Assembly (NCBI GenBank): GCA_045603665.1
Contig: JAZUMO010000090.1
Span: forward strand, 3,503 to 67,502
Reading direction: 5' to 3'
DNA from: Acutalibacteraceae bacterium
GTDB lineage: Bacteria > Bacillota > Clostridia > Oscillospirales > Acutalibacteraceae
Length of the DNA stretch: 64,000 nt
Shown here: positions 43,030 through 62,404 of the stretch, piece after piece
Position numbering within the stretch: the first letter of the stretch is position 1
How the letters are laid out: the number at the start of each line of letters is the position of its first letter
Notes under the pieces: generated by a model
Databases searched by the model: none
Told to the model about the DNA's origin: nothing
The model's input: only the letters and a program-made list of their open reading frames with translations
Program-made: the position numbers and the translations under genes

Positions 43030-44739
43030 CTATTTGAATATTTTTGTGATAAGCTCAAAGAGCCATTTGAGTAAAGCAGTTACTGCAACAAAAATCTTTC
43101 CGTATTTATCCTTCGGATTGTCGAGTCTTTCTTCTGCCTCCCAATTTTCCGTATCACAGTTTTCTGTTGTCATTGTCTCAATTTCACCGTCGGAATCCTC
43201 GTCGGGATTGGTGTAAGAATAAACAACAAACTGTGAGGGCCAGCAGGAATTGTTGATTGTAACCTTTTCCTCAGATGAAGCAATTTCATAAAGGAGTCTT
43301 AATTCCCAATCAGACCAATTGGAATGGCTGGAGCCCTTTATAAACCAGGTACTTTCGGGGAAAAGACAGGTTGAAGCGTCAATCTGACCATCGGGAGAAA
43401 TATACTTACCGAGACCTGCTTCTTCCTTTGCGGCAATATAATCAGCGGGAAGGTCGTTATAAATTGTGCCCGTTGTTGCACCGAAGGATGAACGGCCGAC
43501 TGAAGCAAACTGGTCAGAAATAAGATAGTTTGTCTCACAGATGGGAAGAGTCTGGAAGCCGTATTTTGAAATTACACCGAAATTAATGCCGCTGCCGACA
43601 GCGTTTGTAAGAATTTCGGGAATTCTTTGGCGGACAACAGTGTTATAATTTTCAAGCTTTGAAATAAGACCTGCATATTCTTTTCTCTTTTCACTGCCGT
43701 CGGGACCGAATACATATTCCATAGCTGTACTATAGTCCTGGGGAGATACGCAAGCCCAGTAATTAGGCCATGTGTAGAAGGTTGAAAGAGCAAGTGCTGA
43801 GGTTACACCCTCAACCAGCTTGTAATAAATCCAGTCCTTACCCTTGCCGATAACTGTATCAAGCACACCGGTTCTGTCAAGCATTTCGAGAGTTGTGTTG
43901 ATAAATCCGTCAATATTGAACATTCCGATTGCACCGCAATCCTTAAGTGTTCTGTTAATTGCGGCAGCATCAATATTGAACTTACCGCTGATTGCTTCGC
44001 TGAGCATTTCTGCACCGCTTACAACGCTTCCGTCAAAGGCAATACCTCTGATACTTTCAGCTGCGTGCTCGGGATAAGAAGCAAGATAAGCAGTAACAAC
44101 ATTTGTGCCGAGACAGCTGGCAACAATACCAACCTCACCGCAGCCTGTTGAAGCTATAATATCGTCGATATAAGACTTGAGCTCGCCTGCACTTTCAATG
44201 GGATCAAGTCTCCAGTCATAGTAGAACCAATATCTGTCGTGAACATAGTATTTAACACCTTCAGAGGTGCGCCATGCCTGGTCGTTATGTCTGATGTTGT
44301 TCATTTTATTGATTCTCTCCTGTCTCAGACCGGTGCCGTACTGTGCGTTACCGTCCTTGTCGAGAAGTGAATTTTCAAAAAGCTCACTGATTTCAGTCTG
44401 GAGATTTTTATAATAGGGATCCCAATTGTCGTTAAGCAGACCGTCAATGAGGAAAGGCATAAGAATATTGGCTATTGATTCAAGAAGTGCGCTGTCATCC
44501 TCATCCTCTTCTTCGTCATCACTGTCAAGAATTGAAGCAAAATCCTTGTAATGGAAAACCTTATTGCCGTTTTTGTCAACAAGCTTTTCGCCGTCGCCTG
44601 AGATACGGATTACAGGAATATCACTCAAGCTCTGAGAAATCCATTCTGTCGGCTTGGCATATGCTGTCACAGACCAGACGCCGATAAGCATTATGAGAGC
44701 AAGAAAAAACGAAAGAGATTTTTTTATATTTCTTTTCAT
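43030..44739 (-). CDS. Secreted LCAT/PGAP1-like alpha/beta-hydrolase paralog 1 (Cys at nucleophile position), C-terminal hydrophobic tail
   Basis: GGAGG lies 9 nt before ATG 44739 (MKRNIKKSLSFFLALIMLIGVWSVTAYA signal peptide). YDWRLDP motif; elbow IVASCLG (Cys codon 44113-44115); SDQFAS and SSHSNW as candidate Asp and His; tail IFVAVTALLKWLFELITKIFK. Confidence 0.75.
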   Translation of the reverse strand: MKRNIKKSLSFFLALIMLIGVWSVTAYAKPTEWISQSLSDIPVIRISGDGEKLVDKNGNKVFHYKDFASILDSDDEEEDEDDSALLESIANILMPFLIDGLLNDNWDPYYKNLQTEISELFENSLLDKDGNAQYGTGLRQERINKMNNIRHNDQAWRTSEGVKYYVHDRYWFYYDWRLDPIESAGELKSYIDDIIASTGCGEVGIVASCLGTNVVTAYLASYPEHAAESIRGIAFDGSVVSGAEMLSEAISGKFNIDAAAINRTLKDCGAIGMFNIDGFINTTLEMLDRTGVLDTVIGKGKDWIYYKLVEGVTSALALSTFYTWPNYWACVSPQDYSTAMEYVFGPDGSEKRKEYAGLISKLENYNTVVRQRIPEILTNAVGSGINFGVISKYGFQTLPICETNYLISDQFASVGRSSFGATTGTIYNDLPADYIAAKEEAGLGKYISPDGQIDASTCLFPESTWFIKGSSHSNWSDWELRLLYEIASSEEKVTINNSCWPSQFVVYSYTNPDEDSDGEIETMTTENCDTENWEAEERLDNPKDKYGKIFVAVTALLKWLFELITKIFK

Positions 44740-44778
44740 TTGTATTTTCCTCCTATAGAATATATCTTTCATAGTTAT

Positions 44779-44893: not shown

Positions 44894-45115
44894 CAGTCGG
44901 GTGCGGCTGTCCTGCCCATGCTTATTCACTTTTCCCTACTACTTATTACGAGCTTGCGAGTAACAAGGTTCTCCGAAACAAAGAAATCTTTGATTTCGTC
45001 TTGTTTCGTGAGGTTCTTATTACTTTCAAAAATCGACCCGAAGATTAGTGGAGAGTGAATAGTGAAGAAGTAAAAAGTAAAATCGACGAACCTCTGTCGA
45101 AATTCGTCGATTTTT
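44894..45115. repeat. Structured intergenic module, copy A (GTGAATA subtype) ending in the terminator of LCAT-like gene 2
   Basis: GC box cagtcGGGTGcGGcTGTCCtGCCc. Left arm CTTATTCACTTTTCCCTACTACTTATTAC. Inner hairpins CGAAACAAAGAAATCtttGATTTCgtCTTGTTTCG. Loop box AAAAATCGAC. Right arm GAGTGAATAGTGAAGAAGTAAAAAGTAAAA. Terminator AAAATCGACGAA-cctctgtcgaaa-TTCGTCGATTTTT (45079-45115). Confidence 0.7.
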
Positions 45116-45124
45116 ATGTATGTG

Positions 45125-46801
45125 TTATTTCTTAAATAATGATATCAGGAAATTTATCAGCGCTGTAAACCATCTGATAAGAACTGTAAATCTTGAAGTT
45201 GTATCTGTGGTATCCTTGCTGACATCCTTGTTTTCATCGGTAAGAGGTGTGAGAATTCCTACCTGCTCAACCTTACCGTGTGACATTTCTTCAAAAGTAG
45301 GCTCATAATACATAAACTGTGAATATGTGCCGTGAAGACCTGTGAAGGATTCCGTTGCTTTAATATAAGCATCATCATAGAAAAGGTCAAGTGCCATATA
45401 ATCCACACTGTGGGGATAGGTGTCGTGCTTGAGTTCTTTTATGTACCAGGTGTAATCGGCAAAGGGTGCAGTTGAGCCGTCAACCATTTTATCTGCCGAG
45501 ATATACTTGCCGAAGCCTGCTTCAACTCTTCCGGCAATATAATCATCGGAAAGCTTGCCCTTTAACTCTGAGGTTGTGGCACCCTCAAAGCTCTGTTTAC
45601 GAAGAGATACTACACCGTCACCGAGAAGATCGCTTTCTTCAATAACGGGATACATCTGGTCGCCGTATTTGGTCAGAATATATACCTTTACACCGGCATT
45701 CTGCATTTCCTTGAGCGTTGAAACAGCGGCTTTTTTAATTTCGTTATAACCGTAAATCTTATCAATAAGCTTATCATATTTGCCGTCAGCATTATCGCTT
45801 CCGAGCACAAATTCAACAGCTTCGTCTATTACCTCATCACTTACCATACCCCACCAACCGGGACACTGTCCAAAGACTTCACGGATAAGACGAGGCAAAA
45901 GATTAAGAGATATTTTATCATAGATACCCATAATAAAATCTGTTCCGCCTTCAAGAAGTCCGGTAAATGTTGCGAGATTGACTGTTTGCTTAACCAGGTC
46001 AAGAACGGGGCTTGTATCAATAAAGGTGTTTACAAAGCGGTTCAATCCATCAGGATCAAGATTAACCTTATTGGTATATACCTGATCTGCAATTTCAGCA
46101 CCCATAGCAATACTGTTATACATTATAACGCTTTCGACTTCGTTTTTTGCCTCTTCTGCAAACATATTGAGATATGCATTGACAATAACATTACCCTCAC
46201 AGCGACAGAGAATATTAACCTTGTCATGGCCTGTGCTTTTCTTAACTGCGTCAACAAAGCGTTTAAAATCCTTCGCATTTTCTCTGGGGTCAAGACGCAT
46301 ATCATACTGGAACTGTATGTGCTGAGCCCAGCTGATAGCATCGTTTGTATGACTGGTGTTTCTGCCGCTGTACCTTTTTAACAGATTCTCAATCTGATAT
46401 TCTGTCTGGATACCGGTGATATTTCCCTCGCCCTTTTCACCGTCATCGTTGAGCTTATAGCCGTCATAAATAGGTACGATTTCCTCTAAAAGAATATCAC
46501 AGTACTCATCCCACTCGTCAGTTAAAAGAGCTGCACCGAGAGCAGGGAGAATATTTGACGCTGCTTCGATGACAGAGTCTGTGCCGCCGGAAAGATTGGT
46601 TTCAGCCATATTTTCACTGCCGGTACCGAGAGACGGATCTTTGTAGATGTTTGTTCTGCCCTTAACGTAAATAACAGGGGTGACACCGCAGTTGCATTTG
46701 TAACCGTCTGCTGCAAAAACTGTAAAGCATACGGAAGCGGTGCTTACAAGCATAATTACGGTAAGTAATAATGCAAATGATTTTCTGAGTGTTCCTTTCA
46801 T
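45125..46801 (-). CDS. Secreted LCAT/PGAP1-like alpha/beta-hydrolase paralog 2 (Cys at nucleophile position), C-terminal hydrophobic tail
   Basis: GGAGG lies 8 nt before ATG 46801 (MKGTLRKSFALLLTVIMLVSTASVCFTVFA). YDMRLDP motif; elbow ILCRCEG (Cys codon 46199-46201); GDGVVS and LKHDTY as candidate Asp and His; tail RFTVLIRWFTALINFLISLFKK. Confidence 0.75.
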   Translation of the reverse strand: MKGTLRKSFALLLTVIMLVSTASVCFTVFAADGYKCNCGVTPVIYVKGRTNIYKDPSLGTGSENMAETNLSGGTDSVIEAASNILPALGAALLTDEWDEYCDILLEEIVPIYDGYKLNDDGEKGEGNITGIQTEYQIENLLKRYSGRNTSHTNDAISWAQHIQFQYDMRLDPRENAKDFKRFVDAVKKSTGHDKVNILCRCEGNVIVNAYLNMFAEEAKNEVESVIMYNSIAMGAEIADQVYTNKVNLDPDGLNRFVNTFIDTSPVLDLVKQTVNLATFTGLLEGGTDFIMGIYDKISLNLLPRLIREVFGQCPGWWGMVSDEVIDEAVEFVLGSDNADGKYDKLIDKIYGYNEIKKAAVSTLKEMQNAGVKVYILTKYGDQMYPVIEESDLLGDGVVSLRKQSFEGATTSELKGKLSDDYIAGRVEAGFGKYISADKMVDGSTAPFADYTWYIKELKHDTYPHSVDYMALDLFYDDAYIKATESFTGLHGTYSQFMYYEPTFEEMSHGKVEQVGILTPLTDENKDVSKDTTDTTSRFTVLIRWFTALINFLISLFKK

Positions 46802-46880
46802 TATCATATCCTCCTGATAAAAATTAATAAACCGCTAAGATTCGAAGATACTCCGAGCCTTGACTGTTAATTATAAATTA

Positions 46881-46920: not shown

Positions 46921-46992
46921 AAATTTAAAATCCGAGCACTTTACCCGGAAAGTAAAAATCGACGAACTTCTGTCGAAATTCGTCGATTTTTT
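46921..46992. repeat. Eroded module relic (copy B) plus terminator of the 47060-47557 gene
   Basis: AAAATCCGAGCACTTTACCCGGAAAG resembles the copy C terminator AAAATCCGCCCACTTTCGTGAACGG. It is followed by AAAAATCGACGAA-cttctgtcgaaa-TTCGTCGATTTTTT (46954-46992), which differs by 1 nt from the copy A terminator. Confidence 0.6.
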
Positions 46993-47030
46993 GTGTTTAC
47001 AGCTTAATTTAGCAACAACCCGATAAATTG
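46993..47030. repeat. Conserved 3'-flank box, copy 1
   Basis: GTGTTTACAGCTTAATTTAGCAACAACCCGATAAATTG lies between the gene stop (47060) and its terminator. Near-identical copies are at 47796 and 48985. Confidence 0.7.
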
Positions 47031-47593: not shown

Positions 47594-47622
47594 ATTATAT
47601 CACACCCGATACAAAATTACAA
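47594..47622 (-). promoter_or_regulatory. SigA-type promoter of the 47060-47557 gene
   Basis: Minus strand TTGTAA, 17 nt, TATAAT. The -35 abuts the GC box of module C. Confidence 0.65.
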
Positions 47623-47792
47623 TCGGGTTAGGGTGTCCTGCCTATAATTATTCATTATTCATCAGCAAAGCGACTTCAATATTCATTATTCATTTGAAAA
47701 TCCGTTCTTGCACTAAATGAATAATGAATGATGAATATTGAATAATGAATAATACAAACGAAAATCCGCCCACTTTCGTGAACGGATTTTCG
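47623..47792. repeat. Structured intergenic module, copy C (TGAATAA subtype)
   Basis: GC box TCGGGTTAGGGTGTCCTGCC. Left arm ATTATTCATTATTCA [bulge TCAGCAAAGCGACTTC] AATATTCATTATTCATTT. Loop GAAAATCCGTTCTTGCACT. Right arm AAATGAATAATGAATGATGAATATTGAATAATGAATAAT. Terminator CGAAAATCCG-cccactttcgtgaa-CGGATTTTCG (47759-47792). Confidence 0.75.
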
Positions 47793-47795
47793 TTT

Positions 47796-47834
47796 GTGTT
47801 TACAGCTTAAAATAGCAACAACTCGATAAATTGG
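47796..47834. repeat. Conserved 3'-flank box, copy 2
   Basis: GTGTTTACAGCTTAAAATAGCAACAACTCGATAAATTGG lies between the small-ORF region and its terminator. Confidence 0.7.
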
Positions 47835-47869
47835 AATTTACAACTTTCTTTTATTCACGAAAGCACTAA

Positions 47870-48747: not shown

Positions 48748-48787
48748 ACAATCATACTCCTTTTCCAAATTCTTATTTGTCGAGTTG

Positions 48788-48816
48788 ATTGTATCACATA
48801 TAATCTAAAATTACAA
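48788..48816 (-). promoter_or_regulatory. SigA-type promoter of the lipoprotein/small-ORF unit
   Basis: Minus strand TTGTAA, 17 nt, TACAAT. The -35 abuts the GC box of module D. Confidence 0.6.
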
Positions 48817-48978
48817 TCTGGTGCGGGTGTCCCACCAATTATTCATTATTAATTATTCATCAGCAAAGCGATTTCATTATTCATTAAGAAAAGTCGCATA
48901 ACAGCAATGAATAATGAAAAATGAACATTGAATAATGAATAATAAAAAAAGAAAAGCCACACTATCGTGCGACTTTTC
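48817..48978. repeat. Structured intergenic module, copy D (TGAATAA subtype)
   Basis: GC box TCTGGTGCGGGTGTCCCACC. Left arm AATTATTCATTATTAATTATTCA [TCAGCAAAGCGATTT] CATTATTCATT. Loop AAGAAAAGTCGCATAACAGC. Right arm AATGAATAATGAAAAATGAACATTGAATAATGAATAAT. Terminator GAAAAGCCAC-actatc-GTGCGACTTTTC (48951-48978). Confidence 0.75.
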
Positions 48979-48984
48979 TTTTTT

Positions 48985-49010
48985 GTGTTTACAGCTTAAA
49001 ATAGCAACAA
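48985..49010. repeat. Conserved 3'-flank box, copy 3
   Basis: GTGTTTACAGCTTAAAATAGCAACAA lies between the stop at 49020 and the terminator at 48951-48978. Confidence 0.7.
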
Positions 49011-49019
49011 ATCAAAAAT

Positions 49020-49580: not shown

Positions 49581-49600
49581 TTCTCCTAATTTCATAAATT

Positions 49601-49812
49601 CCGTTTGCCCGAAGGGCAACATCATTGTGCCGAAGGCACACTTCATTGCATCAGCACTTCATTTGCCGTAAGGCAACTTCATTCCTTTATGTACGCTTTG
49701 CTGATAATGAAGTTGACAGCAAGCTGTCAAATGAAGTACTCGCTTCGCTCGTAATGAAGTTATGTCCTGCGGACATAAATGAAAAATCGACTTGTCGAAA
49801 CAAGTCGATTTT
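49601..49812. repeat. Structured intergenic module, copy E (AATGAAG subtype with GC mini-hairpins) ending in the tRNA-operon terminator
   Basis: Five mini-hairpins (49605-49619, 49626-49640, 49663-49676, 49713-49730, 49762-49776) are separated by CATCATT/CTTCATT units (left half) and AATGAAG units (right half). Central GTACGCTTTGCTGAT is the inverted form of TCAGCAAAGCG in C and D. Terminator AAAAATCGACTTG-tcgaaa-CAAGTCGATTTTT (49782-49812). Confidence 0.7.
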
Positions 49813-49887
49813 TGGCAGGGATGGCAGGATTCGAACCTACGAATGCAACAGTCAAAGTGTTGTGTCTTACCGCTTGACGACATCCCT
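49813..49887 (-). tRNA. tRNA-Gln (anticodon UUG)
   Basis: Cloverleaf read by hand: acceptor AGGGATG/CATCCCT, anticodon stem CAACA/TGTTG with loop CTTTGAC, T-arm GTAGG-TTCGAAT-CCTGC, encoded CCA. Confidence 0.9.
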
Positions 49888-62166: not shown

Positions 62167-62318
62167 TTACAATACTGCGGGTGTCCCGCCCACACTTATT
62201 CACTAATACTTCTTACCTATTACTTCGCCAAAAATTGACCCGAAGGAAAAGTGAATAGTGAATAGTAAAGAAGTAAAAAGTAAAATCAACAGCCTTCTGT
62301 CGAAGACTGTCGATTTTT
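62167..62318. repeat. Structured intergenic module, copy F (GTGAATA subtype) ending in the tRNA-Leu terminator
   Basis: TTACAA plus GC box TACTGCGGGTGTCCCGCCCAC. Left arm CTTATTCACTAATACTTCTTACCTATTACTTCGCC. Loop box AAAAATTGACCCGAAGG. Right arm AAAAGTGAATAGTGAATAGTAAAGAAGTAAAAAGTAAAA. Terminator AAAATCAACAG-ccttctgtcgaaga-CTGTCGATTTTT. Confidence 0.7.
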
Positions 62319-62404
62319 GGTGCCGGTGGCGGGGGTCGAACCCGCACGGTATCGCTACCAACGGATTTTGAGTCCGCCTCGTCTGCCAATTCCAACACAC
62401 CGGC
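62318..62404 (-). tRNA. tRNA-Leu (anticodon CAA), long variable arm
   Basis: Acceptor GCCGGTG/CACCGGC, anticodon loop CTCAAAA in stem GCGGA/TCCGT, variable arm TGGTAGCGATACCG, T-arm GCGGG-TTCGACC-CCCGC, encoded CCA. Confidence 0.88.

Follow-up and report, generated by a model that had tools for sequence, protein, structure and literature searches.

A 64,000-nt stretch of DNA from an Acutalibacteraceae bacterium (the window) contains four copies, C, D, A and F, of a repeat module that combines a terminator with a long hairpin. The initial annotation had noticed that the loop of this hairpin carries a 10- to 11-nt box that complements the 3′ arm of the terminator of the same copy, and that the box changes when the terminator changes. 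It took this to be the mark of a selected alternative pairing, such as an antiterminator-like switch or a pseudoknot; a target-site duplication around an inserted arm was offered as another reading. What keeps box and terminator matched: a switch in RNA, the scar of an insertion, or something at the level of DNA?

Layout and strand of the repeat module

Every plausible gene in the part of the window examined for genes (40–64 kb) lies on the minus strand, as do five tRNAs. Read on this strand, the order is upstream ORF or tRNA, terminator, arm R of the long hairpin, linker v, box, arm L, a small GC hairpin and the promoter of the next gene. This promoter is of the σ70 type and has its −35 hexamer (TTGTAA) at the module edge; an RBS and the ORF follow. 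The −35 belongs to the conserved module end CCCGATTGTAA throughout the family, and at many loci the module end brings TTGTAA while TATAAT is located 17 nt further on. The whole element is ≈ 100 to 150 nt. Coordinates are given in the table.

The terminator consists of a 5′ arm (a), a loop that is usually GNRA, a 3′ arm (a*) with one or two G·U pairs, and a T-run. A conserved block, GTTGTTGCYAWWTTRAGCTGTAAACAC, sometimes lies between the upstream ORF or tRNA and the terminator. The linker between arm R and the box is variable (5–9 nt), the gap between box and arm L is 0 to 3 nt, and the box is located 45 to 60 nt downstream of the terminator. In the minus-strand sense, the box is a direct repeat of the terminator 3′ arm plus T-run. 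The arms of the long hairpin are arrays of 7-nt units (TGAATAA in C and D; GTGAATA or GTAAGAA in A and F) that end in a T-run or the GC hairpin, and the latter has the motif GGBTGTCCYRCC on the + strand. We considered a possible resemblance of the heptad arms to ω/RHH-type operator arrays or to CodY and Spo0A boxes.

Positions of the modules and related sites in the window
Feature	Position	Strand	Remarks
Module C, conserved block preceding the terminator	47796..47837	−	GTTGTTGCTAWWTTAAGCTGTAAACAC; further copies at 46993-47030 and 48985-49012
Module C, terminator of the upstream minus-strand ORF	47754..47797	−	20 pairs including 2 G·U; GAAA loop
Module C, "3′ arm" of the initial annotation	47781-47791	−	5′ arm on the transcribed strand
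Module C, arm R	47716..47753	−	7-nt TGAATAA-type repeats; first arm past the terminator
Module C, linker v between arm R and box	47708..47715	−	≈ 45% conserved in class-C copies
Module C, box	47696..47707	−	12 nt; exact complement of terminator 5′ arm; abuts arm L
Module C, arm L	47647..47695	−	Heptad array; bulge CAGCAAAGCG
Module C, small GC hairpin	47625..47642	−	Motif GGBTGTCCYRCC
σ70-type promoter of the gene downstream of C	47594..47622	−	TTGTAA, 17 nt, TATAAT with TG
Module D	48820..48984	−	
Module D, GC hairpin	48820-48836	−	
Module D, arm L	48838-48885	−	
Module D, box	48886-48898	−	
Module D, arm R	48906-48944	−	
Module D, terminator	48945-48984	−	18 paired stem positions
Module A	44899..45115	−	
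Module A, GC hairpin	44899-44917	−	
Module A, nested mini-hairpin insert in arm L	44967-45016	−	
Module A, box	45028-45037	−	
Module A, arm R	45044-45078	−	
Module A, terminator	45079-45115	−	
Module F	62177..62318	−	Directly after tRNA-Leu (62318-62404)
Module F, GC hairpin	62177-62189	−	
Module F, box	62230-62239	−	
Module F, arm R	62247-62281	−	
Module F, terminator	62282-62318	−	
Site B	46954..46992	−	Type-1 terminator with 97% identity to the module A terminator; no arms, no box
Site E	49590..49813	−	Type-1-like terminator (49782-49813) after tRNA-Gln; no box

Two further sites in the window have a related terminator and no box. At site B the terminator is followed by a small second hairpin, and at site E by a different "comb" module in which the 8-mers ACTTCATT and AATGAAGT are interleaved with unique mini-palindromes.

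The strand on which the terminators work could be read from several signatures. GNRA was found in 83 of 170 four-base terminator loops in the minus sense and in none of the 170 in the antisense direction. On the minus strand, and there only, the terminators are fully paired; they have 16 to 20 pairs, loops of 4 nt and a T-run, and come immediately behind ORFs or tRNAs, as is characteristic of intrinsic (Rho-independent) terminators. About 11% of the stem pairs are G·U, and compensatory changes are present (the set of generic terminators assembled for comparison of the wobble frequency was full of false hairpins). In 88 aligned copies, 86.7% of the terminator cells were paired, a value reached by none of 500 shuffles. 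By these sequence signatures, the terminators are shown to be of a kind that would act as RNA on the minus strand. The long hairpin formed by arms R and L behaved differently in the same test for an RNA strand: it is ≈ 85% paired, and its mismatches are mostly non-wobble, with no clear strand bias. The arms therefore look conserved as sequence rather than as a helix.

Distribution of the module and the match of its box

With two conserved module segments as queries, we obtained more than 110 loci each from a species-representative genome collection. In all, these pattern searches yielded more than 230 matches in genome contigs, every one of them from gut MAGs assigned to Acutalibacteraceae, Oscillospiraceae or "Clostridia"; the module-bearing loci come from animal and human guts. 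By a 560-aa protein encoded nearby, the window was assigned to Acutalibacteraceae or Ruminococcus MAGs. A genome scan with the 15-mer AGCTGTAAACACAAA gave mostly chance matches in unrelated phyla. No Rfam family matched, whether the threshold was gathering or permissive (the output was limited to tRNAs and sub-threshold noise), BLAST against phage and plasmid collections gave no match, and a viral contig collection contained a single exact match to the L-arm pattern. In the literature we found no description of the element, nor relevant work on terminator-targeting MITEs of Firmicutes or on PF05635.

The module sits between genes of many kinds. A tRNA-like 3′ end lies within 50 nt before the module in 110 of 181 cases (≈ 60%), and the conserved block precedes it in 23. 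A co-oriented ORF with a Shine–Dalgarno sequence follows within 330 nt at 182 of 253 anchors, and 37 more anchors are near the end of a locus. The proteins encoded downstream form 97 clusters of unrelated functions, including GNAT and NUDIX proteins, kinases, hydrolases and TIM proteins. No recombinase, transposase, integrase or invertase was among these clusters, which cover the first genes downstream of the modules in the 64-kb window and the 8-kb loci. The only recurrent neighbor, found at 26 of 154 sites, is a 115- to 118-aa four-helix-bundle protein of PF05635/TIGR02436, the 23S rRNA IVS protein family, to which the Avd proteins of DGRs also belong. The window contains no PF05635 gene.

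The complementarity in the window was as first described. In module C, GAAAATCCGTT (47696–47706) complements AACGGATTTTC (47781–47791), and the match reaches 12 nt (47696–47707 vs 47780–47791). In D, 48888–48898 complements 48968–48978, with a full length of 13 nt (48886–48898). The pairs of A (45028–45037 and 45106–45115) and F (62230–62239 and 62309–62318, with one T:G position) were also found. The box of C and D is perfect where the + strand 5′ arm of the terminator is imperfect, as the initial annotation held; the mismatches of the latter are C·A, which correspond to G·U on the minus strand.

Box and terminator change together in all four window copies and in 183 non-redundant related modules with a recognizable terminator, which were parsed from 268 anchors. 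In this set (n = 183), 78% of the boxes had at least 10 exact nucleotides to their own terminator, compared with 19% when a module was drawn at random. Of 291 terminator-like hairpins, counted in the first 138 loci and the window, 14 had a downstream complement of at least 9 nt, and 13 of the 14 were these modules. The match is thus far above chance.

To describe the diversity of the terminators, 18 classes were set by an 8-mer in the 5′ arm, into which 166 modules could be placed. The 5′ arms of the classes range from AAAAATCGAC, GAAAATCCGTTC and GAAAAGTCGCA through to the unrelated AAGCCCCAAGGAC and GCGAAACGCTTG. The box was that of the own class in 129 of the 166 modules, that of another class in 6 and that of no class in 31; ≈ 4% of the modules thus carry a foreign-class box, and in 19% the match is no more than partial. 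At least one matched box was present in 15 of the 18 classes.

Covariation was scored on a MAFFT alignment of 88 modules, and the complementarity was indeed kept in the homologous modules of other genomes. Box and 5′ arm were paired in 82.6% of the cells, compared with 32 to 63% when the partner was slid. Cells changed on both sides numbered 35, compared with 10.3 in shuffles, and none of 500 shuffles reached this number. Relative to the class consensus, 39 of 43 doubly changed box/5′-arm positions were compensatory. Individual modules illustrate this: in L217 a single-step compensatory change affects box and 5′ arm, and in L147 three substitutions and an indel of the 5′ arm are mirrored in the box and absent from the 3′ arm.

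The wobble positions of the stem reveal which arm the box follows. Where such positions align with the box, its base was the complement of the 5′ arm in 210 cases and agreed with the 3′ arm in 7. The same 5′-arm columns that form U·G with the 3′ arm in 41 to 43 sequences form U–A with the box in 46 to 49 sequences and U·G in 0 to 1. Interior mismatches between box and 5′ arm are rare (9 in ≈ 150 modules) and have no wobble preference on either strand. As judged from these counts, the box is a DNA-level, exact Watson–Crick inverted copy of the terminator 5′ arm or, equivalently, a direct copy, free of wobbles, of the 3′ arm with its T-run.

In class C, the box is 95 to 99% conserved while the adjacent linker is ≈ 45% conserved. 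Conservation is 90 to 99% for the 5′ arm, the two heptad arms and the box, compared with 40 to 80% for linker v, the variable base of the loop and the wobble positions, and 40 to 60% for unconstrained positions. The box is as conserved as the arms and the linker is not, which indicates that the box is under constraint and is not a decaying relic; conservation of this strength implies some function. The box is still matched where arm R is shortened to 10 to 17 nt. Arms R and L, in turn, are 85 to 95% alike between modules in which a, a* and box are entirely different. The module is therefore a mosaic of the form variable–conserved–variable–conserved, and the two variable parts match each other. 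The observation that prompted this work is confirmed as real, strong and general across the family.

Pairing in RNA

The antiterminator or pseudoknot reading supposes a + strand RNA that contains the long hairpin and has its end at the terminator; in it, the box in the loop and the imperfect 5′ arm would be rivals for the 3′ arm. On this strand box and 5′ arm are identical in sequence, and the box could compete for the 3′ arm only. The perfect pairing of the box beside a local 5′ arm with C·A mismatches (C and D) fits such a switch, and T-runs are found on both sides of the terminator. In the predicted + strand fold, however, a 17-bp terminator stem still forms and the box stays in the loop. 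Forcing a nested pairing of box and 3′ arm costs +36.3 (C), +20.6 (D) and +19.3 (A) kcal/mol relative to the minimum-energy fold, and a pseudoknot would have to bridge a helix of ≈ 38 bp. The helix of the box has essentially no G·U, unlike that of the terminator, and GNRA loops and G·U pairs exist on the minus strand only.

A + strand promoter match lies just upstream of D (48777–48804) at chance level, but C and D share no conserved promoter on the + strand, and the blocks that are conserved are the minus-strand −35 and extended −10. Past the terminator, a + strand transcript would be antisense to the upstream gene or tRNA, which leaves nothing to regulate. A switch in the minus-strand RNA was rejected as well, since the minus-strand order puts the box downstream and it is transcribed after the terminator.

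Attenuators, T-boxes and antiterminators do share with the module three segments, one of which can pair with either of two others, beside a U-tract. In the module, however, the competing segment comes after the terminator in the direction of transcription, and there is no leader, regulated ORF or competitive energetics; neither the segment order, nor the energetics, nor a conserved promoter with a regulated gene was that of an attenuator or antiterminator. A possible resemblance of the UGG in AF-type loops to the NCCA contact of T-boxes was also considered. The antiterminator reading is unlikely, and we give a + strand switch or pseudoknot very little weight. Of the selected alternative pairing proposed at the outset, the covariation is real and the box appears to be tied to its terminator by constraint, so that a selected or templated relationship of the two stands; the antiterminator or pseudoknot in + strand RNA found no support.

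Turnover of the junctions and the role of the box

One orthologous site offers a view of how the modules change. The site upstream of the gene for the 560-aa protein is empty in the window (site B) and filled in two close relatives (L001 and L002). What precedes the filled site is a tRNA and a type-1 terminator in L002, whereas L001 has a different terminator there, AAAATCCC...GGGATTTT, and the matching box GGGATTTTT. The two relatives are alike from just past the box onward, while the upstream gene, terminator, arm R and box differ. This breakpoint indicates that the box travels with the terminator and arm L with the downstream gene; at this site, box and terminator form one heritable block. 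A single site can hence be empty, filled or replaced in different relatives. Exact-protein contig look-up returned no strain-level variants on record.

Other loci contain rearranged forms. L271 and L328 are chimeras with a class-C terminator and a class-D box, L322 is the reverse, and the second copy in L042 has a foreign box. The chimeras indicate that an R-v-b-L unit (b, box) moved to a new terminator keeps its old box, which is not rewritten. In short forms (L192, L205, L223, L250, L251 and L188), diverse unrelated terminators are directly followed by arm L. L329 has arm R alone, and L076 has a 1-kb segment inside a terminator loop. The module-linked terminators are dominated by a few related classes, while the generic terminators of these genomes are diverse. 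A terminator that travels with the module fits this dominance better than repeated capture of resident terminators, a route that we disfavor on this ground and on that of the chimeras with their un-rewritten boxes.

The module could be an ordinary MITE-like insertion, with the box as a neutral leftover of target-site duplication that has no current role. Like a MITE, it is small and non-coding, occurs in many copies, is built of imperfect inverted arms, and may be present in one genome and absent from a close relative. A direct repeat of the terminator 3′ arm flanks arm R, and L025 and L170 are apparent deletions between 3′ arm and box that lack arm R and one repeat copy. This much of the target-site duplication considered by the initial annotation holds: the direct repeat exists. 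It is not a classical duplication, however. The repeat brackets arm R only and is variable in length (10–16 nt) where a fixed length would be expected, and comparison of the empty site B with the filled site of L002 gave an insert of R-v-box-L with no duplication around the whole. In addition, the box follows the ideal complement of the 5′ arm where the actual 3′ arm departs from it, changes in compensation with the 5′ arm, and is 95 to 99% conserved where the linker and other unconstrained positions are at 40 to 60%. A neutral leftover is accordingly improbable.

Alternatively, the box may physically pair with the terminator 5′ arm, as single-stranded DNA, RNA:DNA or RNA:RNA, and this pairing may itself be the selected function. 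Examples would be a folded recombination site at the box/L boundary, comparable to an attC cassette junction; guide-like addressing of insertion to matching terminators; or a hairpin RNA, released by processing, with a loop that would act in trans to open terminator hairpins of the matching class. The exact complementarity in 15 classes, the compensatory changes not shared by the 3′ arm and the conservation of the box beside a varying linker all fit this proposal. So does the strict Watson–Crick nature of the match, without G·U, which would suit pairing at the DNA level or a short AU-rich helix. The homology breakpoint coincides with the box/L boundary, and in L189 a PF05635 gene is flanked on both sides by the same terminator and module, a direct repeat expected after cassette integration.

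Pairing in cis, on the other hand, would be a strained pseudoknot, as only 0 to 3 nt separate the box from arm L and the 5′ arm would need to extend to the tip of a ≈ 38-bp hairpin. For nested alternatives the penalty is +19 to +36 kcal/mol, and the box is unpaired in the minimum-energy folds of both strands. The modules with the box of another class or only a partial match also count against pairing as the selected function, as does the lack of an associated enzyme among the downstream neighbors. We regard a physical pairing role as a serious rival, unlikely but clearly ahead of the other alternatives discussed here.

Among known guide systems, the EBS/IBS pairings of group II introns, the guides of IS200/IS605 and the bridge RNA of IS110 likewise have a loop segment that covaries with the DNA immediately upstream of the insertion point. 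The location beside terminator hairpins is a further likeness; class C group II introns target terminators. Unlike these introns, the module is only ≈ 100 to 150 nt and has no ribozyme core or Rfam match. It also has no gene for a recombinase, RT or TnpA among its downstream neighbors, and its matched 10 to 16 nt pair with the far (5′) arm instead of junction-proximal sequence.

Integron attC sites are also imperfect palindromes of 100 to 150 bp at the 3′ ends of co-oriented, unrelated and often uncharacterized genes, and the gene content of cassettes similarly differs between close relatives, with breakpoints inside the palindrome. On reading the module arms, however, we found no R″/R′ core sites (RYYYAAC/GTTRRRY). 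Each module gene has its own promoter, no IntI is encoded among the downstream neighbors, and the breakpoint is at the boundary of loop and arm instead of the hairpin base.

In a further interpretation, the box would be an address whose exact matching to the 5′ arm licenses recombination or insertion of junction cassettes at the 3′ ends of tRNAs and genes. Matching would take place in folded single-stranded DNA or through a hairpin RNA, and the machinery might involve the recurrent PF05635 (Avd-like) four-helix-bundle protein. We consider such an address doubtful. If true, it would be a new type of cassette system that carries a guide and targets terminators.

As exact inverted repeats of 10 to 16 bp that lie ≈ 70 bp apart, the 5′ arm and the box could in principle bound an invertible switch, with the cwpV terminator switch of Clostridium difficile as the model. 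Flipping of the loop-a*-R-v segment would swap the G·U stem for a C·A-mismatched one and weaken the terminator in one state; some PF05635 genes indeed follow the module with no recognizable promoter in between. Yet no inverted-state junction was present among ≈ 180 genome-derived modules, a scan of metagenome contigs gave 0 inverted-state and 19 normal-state matches, and no invertase gene was among the first genes downstream of modules. Because the repeats are not the same from class to class, no one recombinase could recognize them all. An inversion switch is hardly credible.

The repeat is closest in kind to the REP/BIME/BOX-type mosaics. Like REP, BIME and REPIN elements of Proteobacteria and the BOX elements of pneumococcus, it is multi-copy, exclusively intergenic, placed just past the 3′ ends of genes and fixed in orientation. 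It has modular sub-units (arms, linkers and the comb variant) and long imperfect hairpins, and occurs in presence/absence and nested variants between close relatives. Unlike these elements, the unit includes an intrinsic terminator and the −35 of the next promoter, follows tRNA genes in ≈ 60% of its copies, and carries in its loop a class-specific exact copy of a terminator arm. Also in contrast to them, no RAYT-like or other transposase was seen among the 97 downstream protein clusters, and PF05635 is the sole recurrent neighbor.

Our preferred interpretation, held tentatively and at somewhat less than even chances, is that the element is a modular terminator–promoter junction repeat of one bacterial family, in which the box is a DNA-level matched copy and not an antiterminator. 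The variable length of the repeat and its position around arm R alone count against this view, as do the dominance of a few terminator classes, the chimeras, a conservation of the box strong enough to imply a function, and the lack of a recombinase or transposase gene among the downstream neighbors. Several routes to the arrangement a-loop-a*-R-v-b-L were worked out on paper. Staggered-cut duplication, fold-back priming and strand switching do not yield it. Tandem duplication with inversion and cruciform resolution do not reproduce a box matched to the terminator immediately upstream, nor does Campbell-type integration via a common core give this order with a matched box. The terminator 3′ half may have been duplicated when arm R was installed between terminator and arm L, to give t-R-t-L (t, terminator half). 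Purifying selection would then keep the copy, and the matched pair of 10- to 16-bp repeats would most likely be used by the process that maintains, spreads or recombines the junctions. We infer both the origin by duplication of the 3′ half and the upkeep through use in recombination or propagation with moderate confidence.

The repeat has practical consequences: it breaks MAG assemblies (the contigs of L001 and L002 end inside modules), and terminator, small-RNA and riboswitch searches could be led astray by it. If the constraint on the box is real, a family-wide element of gut Clostridia joins a terminator, a long palindrome and the promoter of the next gene, and its loop sequence is matched to a terminator arm by a rule unlike that of RNA pairing. 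This points to a process acting on DNA at tRNA and gene 3′ ends, be it copying, recombination or targeting, and such a process could explain the shuffling of accessory genes at these sites.

Module architecture and its variants
Features of the modules (the intergenic repeats) and their surroundings are collected in the table. The arm L bulge of modules C and D occurs again at 49694-49705, in the opposite orientation, where it lies within the apical loop of the comb module at site E; this site follows tRNA-Gln. Most other genomes read GCGAAGC at this position instead of ATCAGCAAAGCG; GCGAAGC is a DNA mini-hairpin motif known for its unusual stability. The nested insert in arm L of module A is absent from the orthologue of that module in L002 (2101-2250), one of the related loci, designated by L-numbers, from other gut Clostridia. 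It was also found in L001, at the upstream site of L002, and in L076, L145, L257, L336 and L349.

The comb module is a second module type, located behind type-1-like terminators, that lacks the terminator-matched box (a loop segment complementary to the 5' arm of the module's own terminator). It is built from the 8-mers ACTTCATT, TATATCAT, ATATCACT and TATGTAAT, which recur with a period of 20-24 nt and are separated by mini-palindromes, every one of them unique yet always foldable, often with C-GNA-G triloops. In the window, an inverted copy of the array comes after it, and the two together make up a long, comb-shaped hairpin. Modules of this type also occur at L002 (2320-2423), L120, L025, L190, L278 and L299.

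Features of the modules and flanking sequences
Feature	Location	Strand	Remark
Conserved non-coding block (CCAATTTATCGRGT)TGTTGCYAWWTTRAGCTGTAAACAC	window 46993-47030, 47796-47837, 48985-49012	minus	directly upstream of terminators
TGTCGAA in terminator loop	window 45095, 46971, 49793, 62298		4/4 type-1 terminators
tRNA-like 3' end GGTTCTAAAATGAGACGTACCTCCA	L001 1-25, L259, L297, L306, L325, L328, L335, L339, L353		before module
~1 kb segment	L076 578-1590		inserted in class-C terminator loop
Tandem paralogous genes, 580 and 560 aa	window 43030-44772 and 45125-46807	minus	
Arm L bulge ATCAGCAAAGCG, modules C and D	window 47661-47672, 48859-48870	plus	
Nested mini-hairpin insert (GAACCTCACGAAACAAGACGAAATCAAAGATTTCTTTGTTTCGGAGAACC...), ~70 nt	window 44967-45016		within arm L of module A
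Comb module	window 49590-49781		behind type-1-like terminator

Terminators and preceding sequences
TGTCGAA, the heptamer of the type-1 terminator loops, matches the Spo0A-box consensus. Shared ancestry of the terminators alone may account for its presence in all four loops. The L076 insertion encodes a 189-aa membrane-protein ORF on the opposite strand with its own terminator; TGGGC is found at both junctions, and the segment has short inverted ends (TAAGGACA / TGTCCTTA). Several modules are preceded by the conserved tRNA-like 3' end, whose T-arm is unusual.

Genes associated with modules
Each of the 580- and 560-aa paralogues is bracketed by modules. Their N-termini resemble signal peptides, and both gave a weak alpha/beta-hydrolase match. 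The module repeat breaks assemblies, since L001 and L002, the MAG contigs carrying the orthologue, end within modules.

Behind 26 of 154 modules lies a gene for a 115- to 118-aa four-helix-bundle protein of PF05635 / TIGR02436 (L147, L154-L158, L179, L185, L189, L190, L215-L221, L228, L230, L246, L254, L274, L278, L293, L299, L311, L334, L341 and L343). In a subgroup, the gene starts 34 nt past the GC hairpin and a recognisable promoter is absent; in L189, the same terminator and module flank the gene on both sides. The conserved non-coding block stands directly 3' of the PF05635 stop codon in other genomes and sometimes follows a module with no intervening gene (L002 2250-2300). PF05635 / TIGR02436 is the 23S rRNA IVS protein family, of which Avd of the DGRs is also a member.
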